DNA from: a virus | Lineage: Duplodnaviria; Heunggongvirae; Uroviricota; Caudoviricetes | Length of the DNA stretch: 20,207 nt | IMG/VR virus record: IMGVR_UViG_2718217714_000002 | Coordinates: 1-20,207 of that record | Strand: one strand, 5' to 3' | Shown: positions 8,267 through 20,207 of the stretch, piece by piece | How positions within the stretch are numbered: the stretch's first letter is position 1 | How the letters are laid out: each line of letters begins with the position of its first letter | Program-made: the position numbers and the translations under genes | Notes under the pieces: model-generated | Database searches by the model: none | What the model saw: the letters and a program-made list of their open reading frames with translations, nothing else | What the model was told of the DNA's origin: nothing

Positions 8267-9610
8267 ATGGCTACTTATGCTTCTTATTTACCAGAATCAC
8301 AAATTATCACTTTGTGCAAGGATTTCCCAGCGTTTACTGATCCTGAAAAATTAGATGGATTCATTAATCCAGAACAGTTTGGCGTGTTTTTTCATGAGTG
8401 GATTCATTTTCTTCACAATATTTCCACAATTAATGGGTTTTCTATTTTTTGCACGCAAAACATCCTGTGGTCTAATTTTCGCTGGGCAATGGACAATCAG
8501 GATGTATGTCTTGGTTCAAATGACATGGATCCAGCACATATCGAATCAAACAAAAATTTTCTCAGTTACATTCGTTCCAATAGGAGTCCGCATAAATGTA
8601 ACTTACCTTATTATGTAAAAGTAAACGACTTGTATTTTGAGGATGCAATAATCCATGACATGGAGGTTGCTGACGGTAGTGTTATATGTACATCATTAAT
8701 AAAGTGTAGAATTTCTCATTCTGAAAACAAATACGATCTAGATTTAGGCGTGCTTGAAATACTTGAATCCGCAGCTTTTATGCTTGAATGTAAGTGTATT
8801 AATGCGATGAATGGCTTCCCTCAAGAGGCACCCTTTTATCCGTATCATACTATCAAGGGCTTAGCAGCGAAAATTGCTCCGTCATTAAATGATGAAGATA
8901 TTATTTGTTGTATGTTAGCTTCTTTGCAATCTAATAACCCTCCCCAAGTATTATTCAATCTACTACATAAATGTGAATTATTACATTCTGATTGTAGGTA
9001 TGAACATCTAGTGGCGGAGGTGAAAAAACAATTAAGCGAACAAGATCAAATAATAAGCGAGTCACTTAATCAAATAATTCAAATGATTCCTGTTGATGAA
9101 CCGATGGGAAACTTTATCAAGCTTACTCTTAACAGAATAAGTAACAATTTGAACTATAGAAAGCAAAAACCGTTTTTTGAGTTAGATATAATAAAAAAAA
9201 TAGCAGAAAAAACTGAGTTTATGAATGAAGTAATACAGAAATTCGGTGGTTGCACTATCATCCAGGTAAGACATGGAGATGATAATGAACCACAGCGTGA
9301 TATTATGTATGACTTTTGCTTACCTGAAAATAATGATTCAATTTTATTTGGTTCGAAAATGCTACGCGCTTGTTTTCACTTTATATTTATTCACTTTAAA
9401 CTTTCTGGTGAAATCATGAAGACAGAAGAATTAAATATTTCGCCGCGTAATAAATGCCCATTTTATACTGTTTGCTGTGCATCAATTCGAGCTAATAATA
9501 GTAATATCTGCGCTGAATCCCCTTGGAAATCAATGTCTATTGATGACAACAAAGGTTGTTATTATGCAGCAGCGATTAAAGCTACTAACCCACCAGTTTT
9601 GCCGGATTAA
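8267..9610 (+). CDS. Hypothetical 447-aa protein with N-terminal HExxH motif (possible zinc metallopeptidase-like), in an AT-rich island
   Basis: Long ORF with AGAGGA SD. FFHEWIHFLHN at residues about 41-51. Cys-rich C-terminal part. Markedly AT-rich by eye relative to neighbours. No family recognised. Confidence 0.6.
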   Translation: MATYASYLPESQIITLCKDFPAFTDPEKLDGFINPEQFGVFFHEWIHFLHNISTINGFSIFCTQNILWSNFRWAMDNQDVCLGSNDMDPAHIESNKNFLSYIRSNRSPHKCNLPYYVKVNDLYFEDAIIHDMEVADGSVICTSLIKCRISHSENKYDLDLGVLEILESAAFMLECKCINAMNGFPQEAPFYPYHTIKGLAAKIAPSLNDEDIICCMLASLQSNNPPQVLFNLLHKCELLHSDCRYEHLVAEVKKQLSEQDQIISESLNQIIQMIPVDEPMGNFIKLTLNRISNNLNYRKQKPFFELDIIKKIAEKTEFMNEVIQKFGGCTIIQVRHGDDNEPQRDIMYDFCLPENNDSILFGSKMLRACFHFIFIHFKLSGEIMKTEELNISPRNKCPFYTVCCASIRANNSNICAESPWKSMSIDDNKGCYYAAAIKATNPPVLPD

Positions 9611-11817: not shown

Positions 11818-12189
11818 ATGCGTATAGAGTTTGTTTTGCCTTACCCGCCGACGGTGAACACCTACTGGCGTCGTCGTGGCAGCACATATTTTGTATCAAA
11901 AGCCGGTGAGCGTTATCGCCGGGATGTGGCACTTATTGTCCGCCAGCAGCGGCTGAAATTAAACCTGTCCGGAAGGCTGGCAATAAAAATTACTGCAGAG
12001 CCGCCGGATAAGCGCCGTCGGGACCTGGACAATATCCTGAAAGCACCGCTGGATGCACTGACGCATGCGGGGCTTCTCATAGACGACGAGCAGTTTGATG
12101 AAATCAATATTGTGCGCGGTAAGCTCGTTCCTGGTGGTCGGCTGGGCGTGAAGATTTGCGAAATTAGAGGTGATAGTAATGGGGCGTGA
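11818..12189 (+). CDS. rusA: Crossover junction endodeoxyribonuclease RusA (Holliday junction resolvase)
   Basis: 123 aa with the RusA-family core RRRDLDN and surrounding pattern. Located in the nin region before Q. Confidence 0.8.
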   Translation: MRIEFVLPYPPTVNTYWRRRGSTYFVSKAGERYRRDVALIVRQQRLKLNLSGRLAIKITAEPPDKRRRDLDNILKAPLDALTHAGLLIDDEQFDEINIVRGKLVPGGRLGVKICEIRGDSNGA

Positions 12190-12532
12190 TATGTATGAGG
12201 TTTTAGACCGCTGGGGGGCATGGGCTGCAGCAGAAAATAGTGGTGTCGATTGGCAACCGATAGCAGCGGGCTTCAAGGGGCTTTTACCTCATGGCAAAAA
12301 GTCACGGATTCAGTGTGATGATGACGAAGGCATTATGATAGACAGTTGTGTGGCTCGGTTGAGAAGGTATAAACCAGAGGAATATGAGCTCATCATAGCC
12401 CACTTTGTTATTGGTATCTCATTACGCACTATTGCCAAAAAGAGAAGGTGTTCAGATGGCACGATTAGAAAGGAATTACAAACTGCAATTGGTTTTGTAG
12501 AGGGTATTACGAGCGTTATTGCATGTAAATAA
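12179..12532 (+). CDS. Late-gene antitermination protein Q (short Q, quuD/quuQ-like)
   Basis: MGRDMYEVLDRWGAWAA...IAAGFKGL... aligns with the N-terminus of DLP12 QuuD as recalled (MRDIQMVLERWGAW...AAGFKGL). Start chosen at ATG 12179 (AGAGG SD 9 nt upstream); the track ORF starts at 12170. Confidence 0.7.
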   Translation: MGRDMYEVLDRWGAWAAAENSGVDWQPIAAGFKGLLPHGKKSRIQCDDDEGIMIDSCVARLRRYKPEEYELIIAHFVIGISLRTIAKKRRCSDGTIRKELQTAIGFVEGITSVIACK

Positions 12533-12537
12533 AAGCT

Positions 12538-12559
12538 AAAAGCCACCGTAGTGGCTTTT
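12538..12559. terminator. Bidirectional rho-independent terminator between Q (+) and the converging minus-strand cargo operon
   Basis: AAAAGCCAC-CGTA-GTGGCTTTT. T-rich 3' flank on both strands (AGCATTTT on plus, AGCTTTTATTT on minus). Confidence 0.6.
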
Positions 12560-12565
12560 AGCATT

Positions 12566-12715
12566 TTAGGATTGTGCAGGTAATGTTTTGTTCAATTTAG
12601 TAAAGAAGTTAGATTGGCTTGTTACAGTACGTCGACTCTTTCCAGAAGTACTCAACTGAAAGAAATCATTGATGCTTTTGGGTTGAGTTCTTTCATAGGC
12701 TTGCTTAAGTGACAT
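12566..12715 (-). CDS. Candidate small ORF (49 aa) immediately downstream of the proteasome-like gene
   Basis: My own translation of the reverse complement: MSLKQAYERTQPKSINDFFQLSTSGKSRRTVTSQSNFFTKLNKTLPAQS. Possible GGGGA SD about 5 nt upstream. Below the ORF-track size cut-off. Coding status unproven. Confidence 0.25.
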   Translation of the reverse strand: MSLKQAYERTQPKSINDFFQLSTSGKSRRTVTSQSNFFTKLNKTLPAQS

Positions 12716-12738
12716 GTGTTCCCCTTGTCTATTTGTTG

Positions 12739-14022
12739 CTATGACCGTGAAAAGTAGTGATGGTTCAGTTCTTTTGCAAAATAGTGCTTACGTTTAACCC
12801 AGATAAAACCATCAGCTTTAGAAATGATTGCAACATCTATGGGGCCTCCCACTGTTTCAGTATCATCGGAGACCTTGCGCTTGAAAGCGGTTAAATTTAC
12901 TAATGATTCAGCCATATAAGCTAAATCTTGCTTGGGTAAAAACTCGATCATATTTACGACTTTGTCAACATAGTTTTCTCGGACAAAGCTATCAATACGC
13001 CCCTTGCAATCGGAAACAGTTCTGCGCACTACATCAACTATAGCATCCTTGGCTCCTTCGATATCTGAAGTGGGCACCAAATCTGTGATTACTGAATCAA
13101 TACCATCAAGTAAATCGCCGATAGAACGTTGATACTCAGCATGAAGATTTTGGATAAGATGTGAACTAGCTCCTTGCATGAAAGCAGAAACTTCATCCTC
13201 TTGCGCAAAGGGAGTCACGCCGCAATTAGGAGTGATGCAGCACTTGTCAGCATCTGTGGTTTTCCTTATTTTATCATTAAAGAAGCCACAAACTTCATAT
13301 GATAATACTTTAGGGTAATAGTCTTTATCGCCATAACCTGCAATCACAATCCCAGAGACGGAACCAATATCACTTTGCTTGCATATCATAGCTGCCAATA
13401 CATCACTAACTGCTTTTGTCAACTGTGGAGTTATGGATATTGAATCAAAGTCACTAAACTTTTGAGCAATGATGCGTTGGGTAATTGATGAAGCATAGGT
13501 TTGGGCTGCTTGTTCATCATCCGGAGTAAAACCATCAAAGTAATTAATATCAGATAATTTTGTAAGGAGATCGTTGCAATAATTCGTGAGGTCTGTAACA
13601 AATTGATTCTTATCGAAGTTAACGAGATATGTTGGTTCGAGACCTTCAGAAAAAGCATCAACAAGCATGCTGAATACAATCTCGCTCAGGAAGTGATAAA
13701 GATGAGCCTCACGCATACCTGGTGTGATGATTGATTTAGCTGACTGTAGATAATTGAAGAAATCCTCAGCATATTCCTCCAAAGAGTCAAAACATTTAGA
13801 GCCTAAATCCTTTCTATAAGCCTTAATGATAAGCTCCCATGGAGCTGTGCAGAGATCACCAGTTCCATATACCATCAAACCTACAGGATGATGTTTAGTG
13901 AGAGCGAAAAGCTTTTCAGCGCCATTATAGATTTTATGTTTGCCGCCTCCAGAAATCGTTACAGCTGAATCTGCGGCTAAAGCTACTGCGGTCTTGTTAA
14001 ATACGGCTATTTCTGCTGTCAT
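12739..14022 (-). CDS. Enlarged proteasome beta-subunit/HslV-like (Ntn-hydrolase fold) protein, 427 aa
   Basis: N-terminus M-TAEIAVFNKTAVALAADSAVT...EKLFAL...GLMVYGTGD aligns by eye with HslV and archaeal 20S beta (Thr1, Asp17, Lys about 33-36). C-terminus VGGPIDVAIISKADGFIWV matches the beta-subunit SGGMIDVAVITRKDGYV motif. About 200 extra residues lie between. AT-rich, no canonical SD. Confidence 0.7.
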   Translation of the reverse strand: MTAEIAVFNKTAVALAADSAVTISGGGKHKIYNGAEKLFALTKHHPVGLMVYGTGDLCTAPWELIIKAYRKDLGSKCFDSLEEYAEDFFNYLQSAKSIITPGMREAHLYHFLSEIVFSMLVDAFSEGLEPTYLVNFDKNQFVTDLTNYCNDLLTKLSDINYFDGFTPDDEQAAQTYASSITQRIIAQKFSDFDSISITPQLTKAVSDVLAAMICKQSDIGSVSGIVIAGYGDKDYYPKVLSYEVCGFFNDKIRKTTDADKCCITPNCGVTPFAQEDEVSAFMQGASSHLIQNLHAEYQRSIGDLLDGIDSVITDLVPTSDIEGAKDAIVDVVRRTVSDCKGRIDSFVRENYVDKVVNMIEFLPKQDLAYMAESLVNLTAFKRKVSDDTETVGGPIDVAIISKADGFIWVKRKHYFAKELNHHYFSRS

Positions 14023-14132
14023 TTTTTACATAGGGTTTATATGTTGTGTAATGAGAAAAATACAAAAAAATTAACGCGTACGCAAAAATTCTTGTAATCT
14101 GTTAAGAGTGGTTACTTCGCCACACAGCTTAA

Positions 14133-14157
14133 ACCCGCCGTCGAGCGGGTTTTTTTG
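14133..14157 (+). terminator. Plus-strand intrinsic terminator-like hairpin in the divergent promoter region
   Basis: ACCCGC-CGTCGA-GCGGGT followed by TTTTTTTG. No plus-strand gene lies upstream of it. Confidence 0.45.
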
Positions 14158-15837: not shown

Positions 15838-15913
<76 letters not shown>

Positions 15914-15916
15914 TAT

Positions 15917-15991
<75 letters not shown>

Positions 15992-16376: not shown

Positions 16377-16697
16377 TTCTGAACTCAGAAAAGAATACAC
16401 GGGCATTGATATTACCCGTGTGGCAAGGCCATGAAAGCCAATAATGAACTGAGCGCAAAAAAAGCGCGGCTGTCGGATTAACGCCGCGGGACAAAGTCCG
16501 TGAAGAAGAATAAGCATCAGTCTCCTCCAGGAGACGATTTGATATTACTAAGCTTTAAAAATGGTTTAAACCCCCGGATTAACCTTAATTTCAGATAAGC
16601 TTTATTTCATTTTCTCCGAGCCACGTCAGGCGCATATCACATCAGATAACACCACATAAAAGGTATCTGCGGGTGCCTTTCACGGGGTGTTTTTTTA

Positions 16698-16720
16698 CGG
16701 GCCGCTGGTGGCCCTTTTTT
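16698..16720 (+). terminator. Intrinsic terminator immediately upstream of the holin gene (tR'-like position)
   Basis: GGGCC-GCTGGT-GGCCC followed by TTTTTT, then AGGAG SD and ATG at 16739. A second T-run hairpin-like element lies just upstream (about 16680-16696). Confidence 0.5.
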
Positions 16721-16738
16721 ATTTACAGGAGAAAAAGT

Positions 16739-17130
16739 ATGTCTGAACCCTTATCCGGTTCCGGCACGGCTGCAGCGCTCGGCGGGGCGACGGTGTACGG
16801 GCTGTTTACCGGAACGGATTTCGGGATTGTGTTTGGTGCCTTTGCCGGGGCGTTATTTGTGGCAACGATGCCGCAGGCGCTTTCAGCCTGGCGTGTGCGG
16901 CACATTTTCTGGTGTCGTTCATTGTTGGTGTGCTGGGGGCAGAAGTTCTGGCATCCTGGCTGGTAAAGCATACAGAGTTTGACGGTGCACCTGTCGACGC
17001 ATTGTGTGCAGTACTGGTGTCAGTGGTGTCGGTGAAGATTCTCTCGTTCATCCACCAGCAGGATATTGCATCACTGGTGTCCGGTCTGTTCTCCCGTCTG
17101 CGGGGCGGAGGAGGCGGCAATGTTAAGTAA
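16739..17130 (+). pseudogene. Holin-like gene split by an apparent frameshift at a T4 homopolymer (16905-16908)
   Basis: Frame A (16739..16966) encodes a Gly-rich TM N-terminus and then W/C/R-rich nonsense. Frame B (16912..17130) encodes a TM-rich continuation SFIVGVLGAEVLASWLV.... Adding one T to the T4 run joins them as ...RVRHIFLVSFIVGVLG... into one holin of about 130 aa. Confidence 0.5.
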
Positions 17131-17398
17131 CCTTCCCGGATTGCTGAATGTGGCGTTATGCACGGTTATCGTGCTGACGCTCTTTTTTTATCGTCGTCGT
17201 GATTCCAGACATAAACCGTTGATGTCATGGCTGGCCTGGCTGCTGATGCTGCTTTATGCCTTTGCACCACTCAGTTATCTGTGCGGTCGCCCGTTAGCGG
17301 CGAACTGGCTGGCGGTGGGGCTTAATCTGCTGTTCTGCGTGTTGGTTATTCGCGCACGCGGGAACGTTTCAAAAATCTTTGTATTACGAAGACGCTGA
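17120..17398 (+). CDS. Small membrane protein of the lysis cassette (holin/antiholin-like)
   Basis: 92 aa, MLSNLPGLLNVALCTVIVLTLFFYRRRD... with at least two hydrophobic helices. GGAGG SD. Start overlaps the upstream stop and its stop abuts the endolysin ATG. Confidence 0.5.
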   Translation: MLSNLPGLLNVALCTVIVLTLFFYRRRDSRHKPLMSWLAWLLMLLYAFAPLSYLCGRPLAANWLAVGLNLLFCVLVIRARGNVSKIFVLRRR

Positions 17399-17399
17399 T

Positions 17400-17528
17400 A
17401 TGAAGTCGAAAGATGAAATTTTTGACGAAGTTCTGGGAAAAGAGGGCGGTTACGTCAATCACCCGGATGATAAAGGCGGACCGACAAAATGGGGTATTAC
17501 GGAAAAAGTCGCCCGCGCTCACGGATAA
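17400..17528 (+). pseudogene. Endolysin 5' fragment (glycoside hydrolase family 108-type N-terminus), truncated after 42 codons
   Basis: MKSKDEIFDEVLGKEGGYVNHPDDKGGPTKWGITEKVARAHG then TAA. The GGYVNHPDDKGGPTKWGIT signature is the conserved start of GH108-type phage lysozymes. The downstream sequence switches to tail-fibre coding DNA. Confidence 0.65.
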
Positions 17529-18129
17529 CGGGAAATACACCGCACAGAATGCAACGACAGCACAGAAAGGGATAGTACAACTCAGCAGTGCGACAAACAG
17601 TACTTCCGAGTCACTGGCGGCAACGCCAAAAGCAGTTAAGGCCGCGTATGACCTGGCTAACGGGAAATACACCGCACAGAATGCAACGACAGCACAGAAA
17701 GGGATAGTACAACTCAGTAGTGCGACAAACAGCACTTCCGAGTCACTGGCGGCAACCCCAAAAGCGGTCAAAGTGGTAATGGATGAGGCTCAGAGCAAAT
17801 TATCAAAGGATGAATTTTTAAGAAGTATCAGTTCGCCGAAACCGGATATCGGCAGTGTGGTTATGGCAGCTTTTTTGGGAGTAGCGGAAGGTGGAGTTTT
17901 AATGCGCCTGAGTCGTGGACAACCATGCCCGGGAAAAGCACTTGCGCCGGTGGAAATAGTAGTGGGAGGCGTGACAGGAGCAGGCACAATGAAAGGGGAG
18001 GCAACGTTTGTCATTGGCAGAACGAATACATCGGCATTTCCCGGAGTGTATCAGTCTCTGGGGGGAGATGGTCTTTATACCACCAACGGAAAGGAAGCGT
18101 ATATAGGATTATTTGTGCGGGTCGGGTGA
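17521..18129 (+). pseudogene. 3' fragment of side tail-fibre gene (tail-fibre repeat region plus C-terminal domain)
   Basis: Contains two copies of the tail-fibre repeat GKYTAQNATTAQKGIVQLSSATNSTSESLAATPKAVK, as in Stf proteins. The first about 36 codons of the 17413 track ORF are out-of-frame overlap with the endolysin fragment. Confidence 0.65.
17527..17769 (+). repeat. Tandem direct repeat, 132-bp unit, about 1.8 copies (coding tail-fibre repeat)
   Basis: AACGGGAAATACACCGCACAGAATGCAACGACAGCACAGAAAGGGATAGTACAACTCAG... at 17527 and again at 17659. Also produces the mirrored minus-strand ORF 17346..17771. Confidence 0.8.
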
Positions 18130-18135
18130 CAGAGT

Positions 18136-18702
18136 ATGCAGATAAAAAATATAAGAAATGCCATGTTTCTGGAGGATGGTGCTGTATATTGTGAAGTGCT
18201 TTTGGAGGGGCAGGAGGTACATCTACCTTATACCGCTGTTGAGAATGATGTTGCGGAAATGGGTAAACAGGTCTGGCAGGAACTGCAAAGCGGGAAGTGG
18301 GGCGGAATAGCCCGGTTTACCGTTACGCCTGAACTTATTGCCGCAGAAAAAGAGGCTAAAGTGCGTGAGATCGAAGTATGGCGTCAGGAACAGGAGTCCA
18401 TGTCGTTCATGCTGGAATGGAAAGGTCACAAATGGAATGCTGGTCCGGTTTCGCTGTCCCGCCTCTTACCAGTGGTAATGGCGGCGAAATCAGGAGCTGG
18501 CAGAGAAACAATTGTTTGGGGAGATGGAGAGAATACGCCAATCGTCCTGACGATGCAGGAACTGGAAGAACTTGCGGCAGTAATGGCACGGGCACAGGCC
18601 GATCGCAATGACGAGATTTATCGTCGTCAGCGGGAGATGAAGGAAGAGCTGAATAATCTTGATGATTTACGCTCAATCCGAGCGTTTGACGTTACGCAAT
18701 AA
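18136..18702 (+). CDS. Putative tail-fibre assembly / chaperone-like protein
   Basis: 188-aa ORF immediately downstream of the tail-fibre fragment, the usual Tfa position. Sequence not confidently matched to a specific Tfa family. Confidence 0.4.
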   Translation: MQIKNIRNAMFLEDGAVYCEVLLEGQEVHLPYTAVENDVAEMGKQVWQELQSGKWGGIARFTVTPELIAAEKEAKVREIEVWRQEQESMSFMLEWKGHKWNAGPVSLSRLLPVVMAAKSGAGRETIVWGDGENTPIVLTMQELEELAAVMARAQADRNDEIYRRQREMKEELNNLDDLRSIRAFDVTQ

Positions 18703-18923
18703 AAAAAACACTGATATGCAAGCCCCTTGTAAAAATATTGAACAGGGATGCTTTGAGTTGAATTGGATTTACATGGGGGCACCTTGGGGCATATATGGGA
18801 CATAAAAAGGCCTCAGACAAACAGCAAAATCGAGATCAGGAGTTTTTAGAAAAAATACAACTATCTGAAAAAACTTAGAAAACGCCCAAAAATCCATAGG
18901 ATGGTAAAAAATATCTATGAATT

Positions 18924-20207
18924 ATGGATTTCCAGTTATATTCGCTCGGCGCAGCGTTGGTGTTTCATGAAATATTTTTTCCTGAATCATCAACGGCAAT
19001 GGCGTTAATTTTGGCAATGGGAACCTACGGTGCAGGTTATGTGGCGCGTATTGTCGGAGCATTTATTTTCGGCAAAATGGGCGACAGAATAGGGCGTAAA
19101 AAAGTGCTCTTTATTACCATCACCATGATGGGGATCTGTACCACCTTAATTGGTGTGTTACCGACCTATGCACAGATTGGTGTTTTTGCCCCCATCTTGC
19201 TGGTGACGCTGCGTATTATTCAGGGGTTGGGTGCAGGTGCGGAAATTTCCGGTGCCGGTACGATGCTGGCGGAATATGCACCAAAAGGTAAGCGCGGAAT
19301 TATCTCCTCATTTGTAGCTATGGGAACTAACTGCGGAACCTTGAGCGCAACGGCAATCTGGGCCTTTATGTTCTTCATTCTCAGTAAAGAGGAACTGCTG
19401 GCGTGGGGATGGCGTATACCGTTCCTGGCGAGCGTTGTCGTGATGGTCTTTGCTATCTGGTTACGTATGAATCTGAAAGAAAGCCCGGTCTTTGAGAAGG
19501 TTAATGACAGCAACCAACCCACAGCAAAACCTGCACCTGCTGGTAGCATGTTCCAGAGCAAATCCTTCTGGCTGGCAACAGGGCTGCGTTTTGGTCAGGC
19601 GGGTAACTCCGGGTTAATTCAGACTTTCCTTGCAGGCTATTTAGTGCAGACGTTATTGTTTAACAAAGCAATTCCAACAGATGCATTGATGATTAGTTCG
19701 ATTCTCGGCTTTATGACCATTCCGTTCCTTGGTTGGTTATCCGATAAAATTGGTCGCCGGATCCCGTATATTATTATGAATACCTCCGCGATTGTGCTGG
19801 CATGGCCAATGCTTTCTATCATTGTAGATAAAAGCTATGCCCCGAGCACCATTATGGTTGCACTGATTGTGATTCATAACTGTGCGGTGCTGGGATTATT
19901 TGCTCTGGAAAACATTACCATGGCAGAAATGTTCGGCTGTAAAAACCGCTTTACCCGGATGGCCATTTCTAAAGAAATTGGTGGTCTTATCGCTTCCGGT
20001 TTTGGTCCTATCCTGGCGGGTATTTTCTGCACCATGACGGAATCCTGGTATCCGATCGCCATTATGATCATGGCATATTCAGTGATTGGTTTAATCTCTG
20101 CGCTGAAAATGCCAGAAGTGAAAGACCGTGATTTAAGTGCGCTGGAAGACGCTGCGGAAGATCAACCGCGTGTTGTAAGAGCTGCGCAACCTTCCAGAAG
20201 TCTGTAA
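18924..20207 (+). pseudogene. ydfJ: MFS (metabolite:H+ symporter family) transporter gene lacking its 5' end; ydfJ-like prophage-interrupted gene
   Basis: 427-aa ORF begins MDFQLYSLGAALVFHEIFFP..., i.e. inside the conserved (E)W(Y)DF region that normally follows TM1. In-frame TGA three codons upstream. Matches what I recall of E. coli ydfJ, which is interrupted by Qin. Confidence 0.7.

Follow-up and report, generated by a model that had tools for sequence, protein, structure and literature searches.

A conserved small gene beside a prophage-borne proteasome-like protease, and its probable role as the partner of the enzyme

Here we describe a two-gene cassette in a lambdoid prophage of E. coli, found within a 20,207-nt stretch of DNA (the window). 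The first gene of the cassette encodes a 427-aa protein related to proteasome beta subunits and the second is an ORF of 49 codons (Table 1). The cassette lies between the Q antiterminator gene and the late-gene region and is read from the opposite strand, with DUF968, RusA and Q on its left and genes for a DNA methyltransferase, tRNA-Thr and tRNA-Gly on its right. Over its two minus-strand genes the G+C content falls from about 0.52 to about 0.38-0.41. The 1.5-kb segment that contains it (12533-14060) is present in 8 of 5,426 complete E. coli genomes, at 99.9% identity or more in every case; at least two of the eight are labelled ETEC (ETEC-2265; TW10722) and seven came from humans. Because the flanking sequence is common and the segment is rare, the segment is cargo.

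Table 1. Features of the protease cassette and the adjoining Q gene, with positions in the window
Feature	Position	Strand	Basis	Remarks
Small gene (49 codons + stop)	12715..12566	minus	ORF call and translation	MSLKQAYERTQPKSINDFFQLSTSGKSRRTVTSQSNFFTKLNKTLPAQS
Shine-Dalgarno-like AAGGGG	12721..12726	minus	read from sequence	5 nt 5' of the small-gene ATG
427-aa proteasome beta-like Ntn hydrolase with helical insertions	14022..12739	minus		first gene of the operon
Bidirectional intrinsic terminator	12535..12562	both	terminator scan	closes the two-gene operon (minus) and the Q gene (plus)
Q antiterminator gene	12170-12532	plus		convergent to the cassette, shares the terminator
Candidate weak operon promoter (TTGTAT, 18 nt, TATAAA)	14036..14065	minus	by-eye reading	low confidence

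The ATG of the small ORF lies 23 nt beyond the stop codon of the protease gene, on the same strand, and its own stop codon (12568-12566) is followed after 3 nt by a 12-bp G+C-rich hairpin and a T-run, with a computed RNA fold of -25.2 kcal/mol (z = -6.6 against shuffles). Place, strand, sequence and spacing are all as the original prediction gave them, and its remark that the frame ends just before a bidirectional terminator held as well, the hairpin being common to the convergent Q gene. Homologous loci have GGAG, AAGG or GGGG motifs at the same spacing before the small ORF, and in related loci equivalent hairpins are found 3' of it. From the Shine-Dalgarno (SD) motif, the spacing, the single downstream terminator and the codon-level selection described below, we infer that the small ORF is translated and that it is co-transcribed with the protease gene. 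The candidate operon promoter in Table 1 would imply a very short leader and is not among the promoter-scan predictions; its TTGTAT hexamer is kept in the loci of the window's own clade.

A conserved non-coding block upstream of the protease gene (14056-14155, plus strand) was considered as the protease promoter or operator and rejected, since about 2,960 E. coli genomes without the cassette also have it. A phage late promoter region on the other strand accounts for it better. The block is found at 83-96% identity in about 2,960 of the 5,426 complete E. coli genomes, K-12 derivatives included, and at all loci of the window's clade. It contains a late-promoter-like TTAACG, 16 nt, TGTAAT arrangement with a strong terminator (14131-14152) about 50 nt later, and is probably a Q-dependent pR'/qut/tR' unit, in which case the cassette would have been inserted between Q and its target promoter.

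The product of the first gene is annotated by PGAP as hypothetical (WP_000123148.1). It matches no Pfam, NCBIfam or PADLOC model and corresponds to PHROG 5990, a family whose function is not known. The original prediction had called this gene proteasome-like, and a proteasome beta fold was indeed found: the protein has the alpha-beta-beta-alpha Ntn sandwich of 20S beta, HslV or Anbu, together with equivalents of the N-terminal nucleophile Thr1, of Asp/Glu17 and of Lys33. In an HMM alignment to the beta subunit of T. acidophilum, D18 falls on Glu17, K37 on Lys33, and GGPIDVAII aligns with GGMIDVAVI. M1-T2, D18 and K37 are invariant in 119 homologs, as are the N-terminus Met-Thr-Ala-Glu and a GGxxD motif, and the catalytic residues thus appear to be intact. 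Over-long database entries for the protease are upstream mis-starts, and since all of these contain an internal MTAEIA, the threonine would be exposed by removal of the methionine alone, with no propeptide. In the structural model, the core is interrupted by two long helical insertions, at approximately residues 100-214 and 287-360. The family is large, with more than 6,000 database clusters.

A bioinformatic catalogue of proteasome homologs includes widely distributed, uncharacterised proteins with multiple insertions (PMI) and no propeptide, in which long insertions follow H1/H2 and lie between H3/H4 (Fuchs, Alva and Lupas 2021, PMC8665760). In secondary-structure layout, the window protease with its two helical insertions fits this description, and it may belong to the PMI-3 or PMI-4 subfamily. 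The insertions may preclude the formation of rings (PMC8665760). Unlike the present analysis, the PMI study deals with neither gene neighbourhoods nor a small partner gene (PMC8665760).

The small ORF encodes a hydrophilic protein of 49 aa with a net charge of +6. As had been predicted, it is missed by default annotation: PGAP places no CDS there in the RefSeq record of an identical E. coli locus, and the protein is nearly absent from protein databases. In a set of 5.8 billion proteins the peptide matched 5 clusters, and a profile of the peptides of the window's clade, run against 1.84 billion representatives, recovered 6 true ones, all from that same clade. There is no match in Pfam or NCBIfam and one non-significant match in PHROGs (E = 0.045). 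Rfam gave no credible match for the ORF region, and the possibility that the region is a known RNA was rejected for that reason.

To judge whether so short a frame is a gene, homologous loci were drawn from reference genomes, IMG/VR, metagenomes, annotated phages and plasmids, and exact-protein look-ups. A small basic ORF of 30-75 aa occupies the same position in about 95 of 100 distinct homologous loci. In 84 of the 100 distinct downstream contexts it is ATG-initiated, preceded by an SD motif and on the strand of the protease gene (30-75 codons, with the start -30 to +45 nt from the protease stop), and 11 further contexts have a clearly related small ORF with a weaker SD. These loci belong to Enterobacteria, Vibrio, Alteromonas, Stenotrophomonas, Streptococcus, Enterococcus, Bacillus and Porphyromonas phages. 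Beside distant homologs the small ORF is in some cases already annotated or called, as in the Streptococcus satellite Javan103, a Porphyromonas phage, an Enterococcus faecium plasmid, B. thuringiensis prophages, and Vibrio and Klebsiella loci. Under a stricter definition (an SD-preceded ORF of at least 34 aa whose start lies within -20 to +32 nt of the protease stop), 75 of 84 distinct loci are positive, whereas dinucleotide shuffles give 2.2% and reverse-complement controls 8 of 84, so that the small ORF occurs far more often than chance would allow.

Selection at the codon level could be assessed in class A, the window's clade, which is represented in Escherichia, Klebsiella, Enterobacter, Citrobacter, Buttiauxella and Symbiopectobacterium and in which protease identity ranges from 58 to 100%. 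The 16 distinct class-A peptides align over their full length, and all indels are of whole codons. Throughout that range of protease identity, the motifs M-x-[LM]-[KR]-Q, D-F-[FL] and, beyond a linker of some 17 residues that does vary, [NS]-F-F-x-x-L remain unchanged; in the window peptide they read M-S-L-K-Q-x-Y, DFF and NFFxKL. Between class-A pairs whose proteases are 85-89% identical, pS of the small ORF is 0.33-0.84 and pN 0.07-0.19, and dN/dS is about 0.07-0.17 where dS is not saturated. Variability is greatest at the third codon position (25.7, against 17.3 at the first and 15.8 at the second).

Position, frame and motifs are thus conserved and purifying selection acts on the codons, in keeping with a real small gene. 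The original prediction had made conservation across homologous loci its test, and the ORF is lacking in only 3-4 of 100, with a nonsense codon in one. It could still be argued that the ORF is no functional protein gene, being either a chance frame or one translated only for the sake of termination or mRNA stability, so that its amino-acid sequence would be irrelevant. The frame is, after all, short, hydrophilic and passed over by PGAP, just 5 database clusters match it, and one related contig carries a nonsense codon at position 5. This reading is very improbable, and we consider it effectively refuted by the sequence comparisons: synonymous changes greatly outnumber non-synonymous ones in class A, the third position varies most while the motifs stay invariant, the ORF is kept across phyla where shuffles yield it in 2.2% of cases, and the region matches no Rfam family. 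On the evidence of these comparisons, the 49-codon ORF is a genuine gene: selection acts on its protein product, and across phyla it keeps its link to the protease.

The exceptions are few. The nonsense codon is a CAA-to-TAA change at codon 5 in one of two viral contigs that are otherwise identical (L074, about 670-690, compared with L043); it is the only disrupted copy seen and could be a sequencing error or a recent loss. At three Vibrio/Photobacterium loci (L011, L012 and L015), a terminator stands directly 3' of an intact, catalytically complete protease gene and there is no credible small ORF, L015 having only a dubious TTG frame after the protease gene. Because these three loci keep an intact protease, the small partner is dispensable in some lineages. 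At the two Photobacterium loci (L012 and L015, upstream of 4001), the operon is arranged differently, with the protease gene directly after a conserved gene; the products of that gene have similar C-terminal ends, ...GRVVMTMAKA and ...GKVISN. A homolog on a Mesorhizobium plasmid (L147 3001-4437, NZ_AP023255.1) has a basic, low-complexity C-terminal extension of 57 aa and no separate downstream ORF. This extension may be a fused or replaced partner; it is suggestive, but since the tail is without the N-terminal motif it was not counted as a true protease-peptide fusion. The Mesorhizobium protease gene adjoins ThiF-family and multiubiquitin-domain genes. Other over-long homologs were also inspected as natural fusions, and all proved to be N-terminal mis-starts or to have slightly longer tails.

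In more distant protease clades the sequence of the peptide differs and its design is the same. Class B peptides contain ...LELREWQKKFNP..., a linker and then a C-terminal F-[STCN]-[WLIM]; class C peptides have MSLQQVVDNAYKALAAAKFP... and related forms, and class D peptides MSLANHMKKLRVLANQKRF.... Those of Gram-positive and Bacteroidota loci are 52-62 aa long, and some are annotated as hypothetical proteins (QBX07025.1, DBA55723.1, WP_002347084.1). The 68 distinct peptides have a median length of 49 aa and a median net charge of +5, the charge being positive in 98.5% of them; 99% carry an aromatic residue at positions 6-28, and 88% carry one among their last 15 residues. Position and architecture are what classes A-D and the Gram-positive forms have in common, the class-A profile search having recovered peptides of class A only. 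The peptide diverges alongside the protease clades about two to three times faster than the enzyme, with identities to the window pair (protease/peptide) of 89/71, 66/39-43 and 58/31%.

The N-terminal helical segment of the window peptide ends in the conserved aromatic residue of DFF, and the second aromatic motif lies near the C-terminus, 8-10 residues from the end in class A. Modelled alone with AlphaFold2, the peptide forms two short N-terminal helices at 3-10 and 15-24 (pLDDT about 84 for both) and a third at 37-41, a helical turn over NFFTK, with low confidence elsewhere, a pTM of 0.30 and no stable fold. This predicted profile is that of a binding peptide and not of a domain. Neither the Pfam, NCBIfam and PHROG searches nor the model, with its short helices and disorder, revealed a DNA-binding domain of the kind usual in type II antitoxins, and nothing in the peptide, such as a signal sequence, recalls the processed signalling peptides that are known.

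The cassette is carried by phages, satellites, plasmids and defence islands in both Gram-negative and Gram-positive hosts. In Klebsiella, Enterobacter and Citrobacter prophages it sits in the slot between Q and the lysis genes on the opposite strand, a group in which we place the window, and once lies beside HicAB. In Klebsiella pneumoniae prophages it is directly downstream of a cI-like repressor gene on the same strand; the position after cI is that of rexAB in lambda. It follows a Toprim/VapE primase in a Serratia P4-like integrative element, stands at the end of streptococcal satellites, and in B. thuringiensis prophages comes after the endolysin gene, near SocA_Panacea and HNH/SRA genes. 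In Vibrio parahaemolyticus it adjoins an integrase and a type I R-M system, and on a Streptococcus chromosome (OZ186764.1, L148 6001-7390) the protease gene and a 62-aa small ORF are flanked by hsdR on one side and two hsdS genes on the other, within a type I R-M system, much as the prrC anticodon nuclease gene is embedded in a type I R-M locus (EcoprrI). The same streptococcal locus also holds a Gp49/HTH toxin-antitoxin pair. Such a distribution is the usual signature of defence or addiction cargo, and as evidence it is circumstantial. Both proteins gave zero matches in PADLOC-DB 2.0.0 at E <= 1, and it is therefore the neighbourhood by itself that points to a defence role. In the literature on proteasome-like/Ntn proteins and phage defence, we found no defence system built on a proteasome-fold enzyme.

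A probable relative of the window protease has been studied in S. pneumoniae TIGR4, in the only experimental work that we found. Rrp (SP_1145), the 'ribosome rescue protease', is a 44.8-kDa proteasome/Anbu-like enzyme with additional domains, and its gene lies on a phage-like element that has int, rep, xis, dnaD/I and terS (bioRxiv 10.64898/2026.08.10.744006). In the absence of Prp, Rrp trims bL27 at its N-terminal extension; it is active in vitro without a partner, cleaves with relaxed specificity, mostly after Met and Leu, and co-purifies with ribosomes; expressed alone, it markedly slows the growth of E. coli (10.64898/2026.08.10.744006). That paper treats the protease as a single gene and mentions no downstream small ORF (10.64898/2026.08.10.744006). 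The streptococcal members of the window protease family are proteins of 396-404 aa and 45.0-46.3 kDa, are 28-30% identical to the E. coli protein over its full length, and are encoded on satellites beside terS and regulator genes. Rrp resembles the family in size, in its described fold, in its extra helical domains and in its phage-like or satellite carriage. Because these streptococcal homologs match it in size, fold and element type, Rrp is probably a member of the family, a placement made on those traits; a pneumococcal label was sought among the homology-search matches, the cluster members and the phage collection, and none was seen. The bL27 of E. coli does not have the N-terminal extension that Rrp trims, and the physiological target of the window protease must therefore differ from that of Rrp.

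Since the small gene travels with the protease across bacterial phyla, the two probably work as a pair, which agrees with the original prediction that the small product could be a partner, substrate or regulator of the protease. In the mechanism that we propose, the peptide would bind its cognate protease through its two aromatic motifs and, once bound, would restrain, limit or tune the activity of the enzyme as a pseudosubstrate, inhibitor or antitoxin-like partner. The pair, with the small gene as second cistron behind the proteasome beta-like N-terminal-threonine hydrolase, would be mobile-element cargo, and when expressed from the prophage it would act as a toxin-antitoxin-like/addiction or abortive-infection-type module. 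This model is the most economical one because it brings together a promiscuous and harmful protease (from the Rrp data), a basic, disordered and fast-evolving peptide with two aromatic motifs, strict co-inheritance of the two genes, and the occupation of defence-type genomic slots. The toxicity and poor specificity of Rrp on its own are as expected for an enzyme expressed without its cognate regulator. We infer binding, inhibition and the defence role alike, and hold the model as a tentative one whose likelihood falls somewhat short of even.

Several observations restrict the form that such a gate could take. In TIGR4 the native protease has sufficient activity for bL27 processing, which means that inhibition, if any, would be partial; L011, L012 and L015 keep the protease without a partner. 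The peptide-less intact proteases and the apparent native activity of Rrp in TIGR4 argue that the partner is not universally required for the enzyme to be tolerated. As for an antitoxin, the peptide lacks a DNA-binding domain and the enzyme-first gene order is atypical of classical type II toxin-antitoxin pairs. The type II traits that were observed are adjacency and a shared terminator, growth inhibition having been reported only for Rrp alone in E. coli.

A second way of relating the two proteins is to regard the peptide, which the original prediction had also offered as a possible substrate, as a dedicated substrate or pro-peptide, cleaved for example after a conserved Phe so as either to release an active fragment or to be consumed as a bait or decoy that reports protease activity. 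The conserved aromatic motifs from which such a site would be drawn differ between the sequence classes, however, and Rrp is relaxed in specificity and cuts mainly after Met and Leu, not Phe. The peptide, moreover, is without a signal sequence or the features of processed signalling peptides, and we regard this role as unlikely.

The peptide might instead be a positive factor: an assembly chaperone (Ump1/POMP-like), an activator docking by its C-terminus (HslU tail/HbYX-like), or an adaptor for ribosomes or phage proteins. Activators of the proteasome and of HslV dock by C-terminal tails (HslU, HbYX), which the class B ending resembles, with its F-[STCN]-[WLIM] at the extreme C-terminus; the peptide shares small size, basic charge and disorder with assembly factors, and Rrp co-purified with ribosomes. 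Yet Rrp needs no partner for the in vitro activity and the toxicity in E. coli that are reported for it, the second motif of class A stops 8-10 residues short of the C-terminus, and some lineages do without the ORF altogether. A positive role of any of these kinds seems quite improbable to us.

Known regulators of proteasomes offer functional analogies for a peptide that binds and gates its protease. PI31/Fub1 are disordered inhibitors of the 20S proteasome, and Ump1/POMP is an assembly factor that is degraded on maturation. Like the window peptide, for which disorder is predicted, these are small or disordered polypeptides, and they act directly on the active sites or the assembly of proteasome-fold enzymes; they differ from it in being eukaryotic, in acting on ring assemblies and in having no sequence similarity to it. 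With modules of the rexAB/prrC type, the cassette shares a compact operon, the same genomic slots and a fast-evolving small partner, and harm by the enzyme is reported for Rrp. Unlike toxin-antitoxin and abortive-infection modules, the cassette has no PADLOC match and its peptide no DNA-binding domain. We know of no toxin-antitoxin or defence family that uses a proteasome-fold enzyme.

A bolder form of the proposal, which we consider speculative and rather doubtful, is that the pair is a phylum-spanning immune or addiction module of mobile elements that has so far gone unrecognised, in which the protease is held in check by, or senses infection through, the fast-evolving disordered peptide. 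Phage infection or loss of the element would then release the protease, which would cleave ribosomal proteins or other essential targets. If this were true, bacterial anti-phage defence would have its first effector of the proteasome family, and a peptide missing from annotation would be the switch.

What was already known is that the protease family had been noted bioinformatically and, probably, met once in experiments as Rrp. No description of the small gene, or of a two-gene cassette spanning Enterobacteria to Firmicutes and Bacteroidota, was found in the literature searched. The companion gene of a widespread protease is thus invisible in standard annotation, being skipped by PGAP and represented by 5 clusters in 5.8 billion proteins. 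Once the cassette is seen as a two-gene unit, the protease has to be studied differently, and there is a concrete, inexpensive way to ask whether enzymes of the proteasome fold take part in bacterial immunity or in element addiction. The small gene also adds a well-supported case to the under-annotated small proteins of prophages in pathogenic (ETEC) E. coli.

The remainder of the window gives some further detail on the prophage. Genes for tRNA-Thr(TGT) and tRNA-Gly(TCC) lie at 15838-15991. In 16673-20207, beginning within about 1.4 kb of the tRNAs, there are tail-fibre-repeat and DUF4376 fragments and then an ORF at 18924-20207, also of 427 aa, which was considered as a paralogue of the protease and rejected: it encodes an MFS transporter, and the equal length is a coincidence. 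Lysis and head genes were not seen, unlike in the related locus NZ_CP025916.1, and the prophage therefore looks like a remnant that still keeps the cassette. Upstream of the early region of the prophage, a 447-aa ORF at 8267-9610 (plus strand), with a G+C content of 0.31-0.34 and no match in Pfam or PADLOC, may be another piece of uncharacterised cargo.
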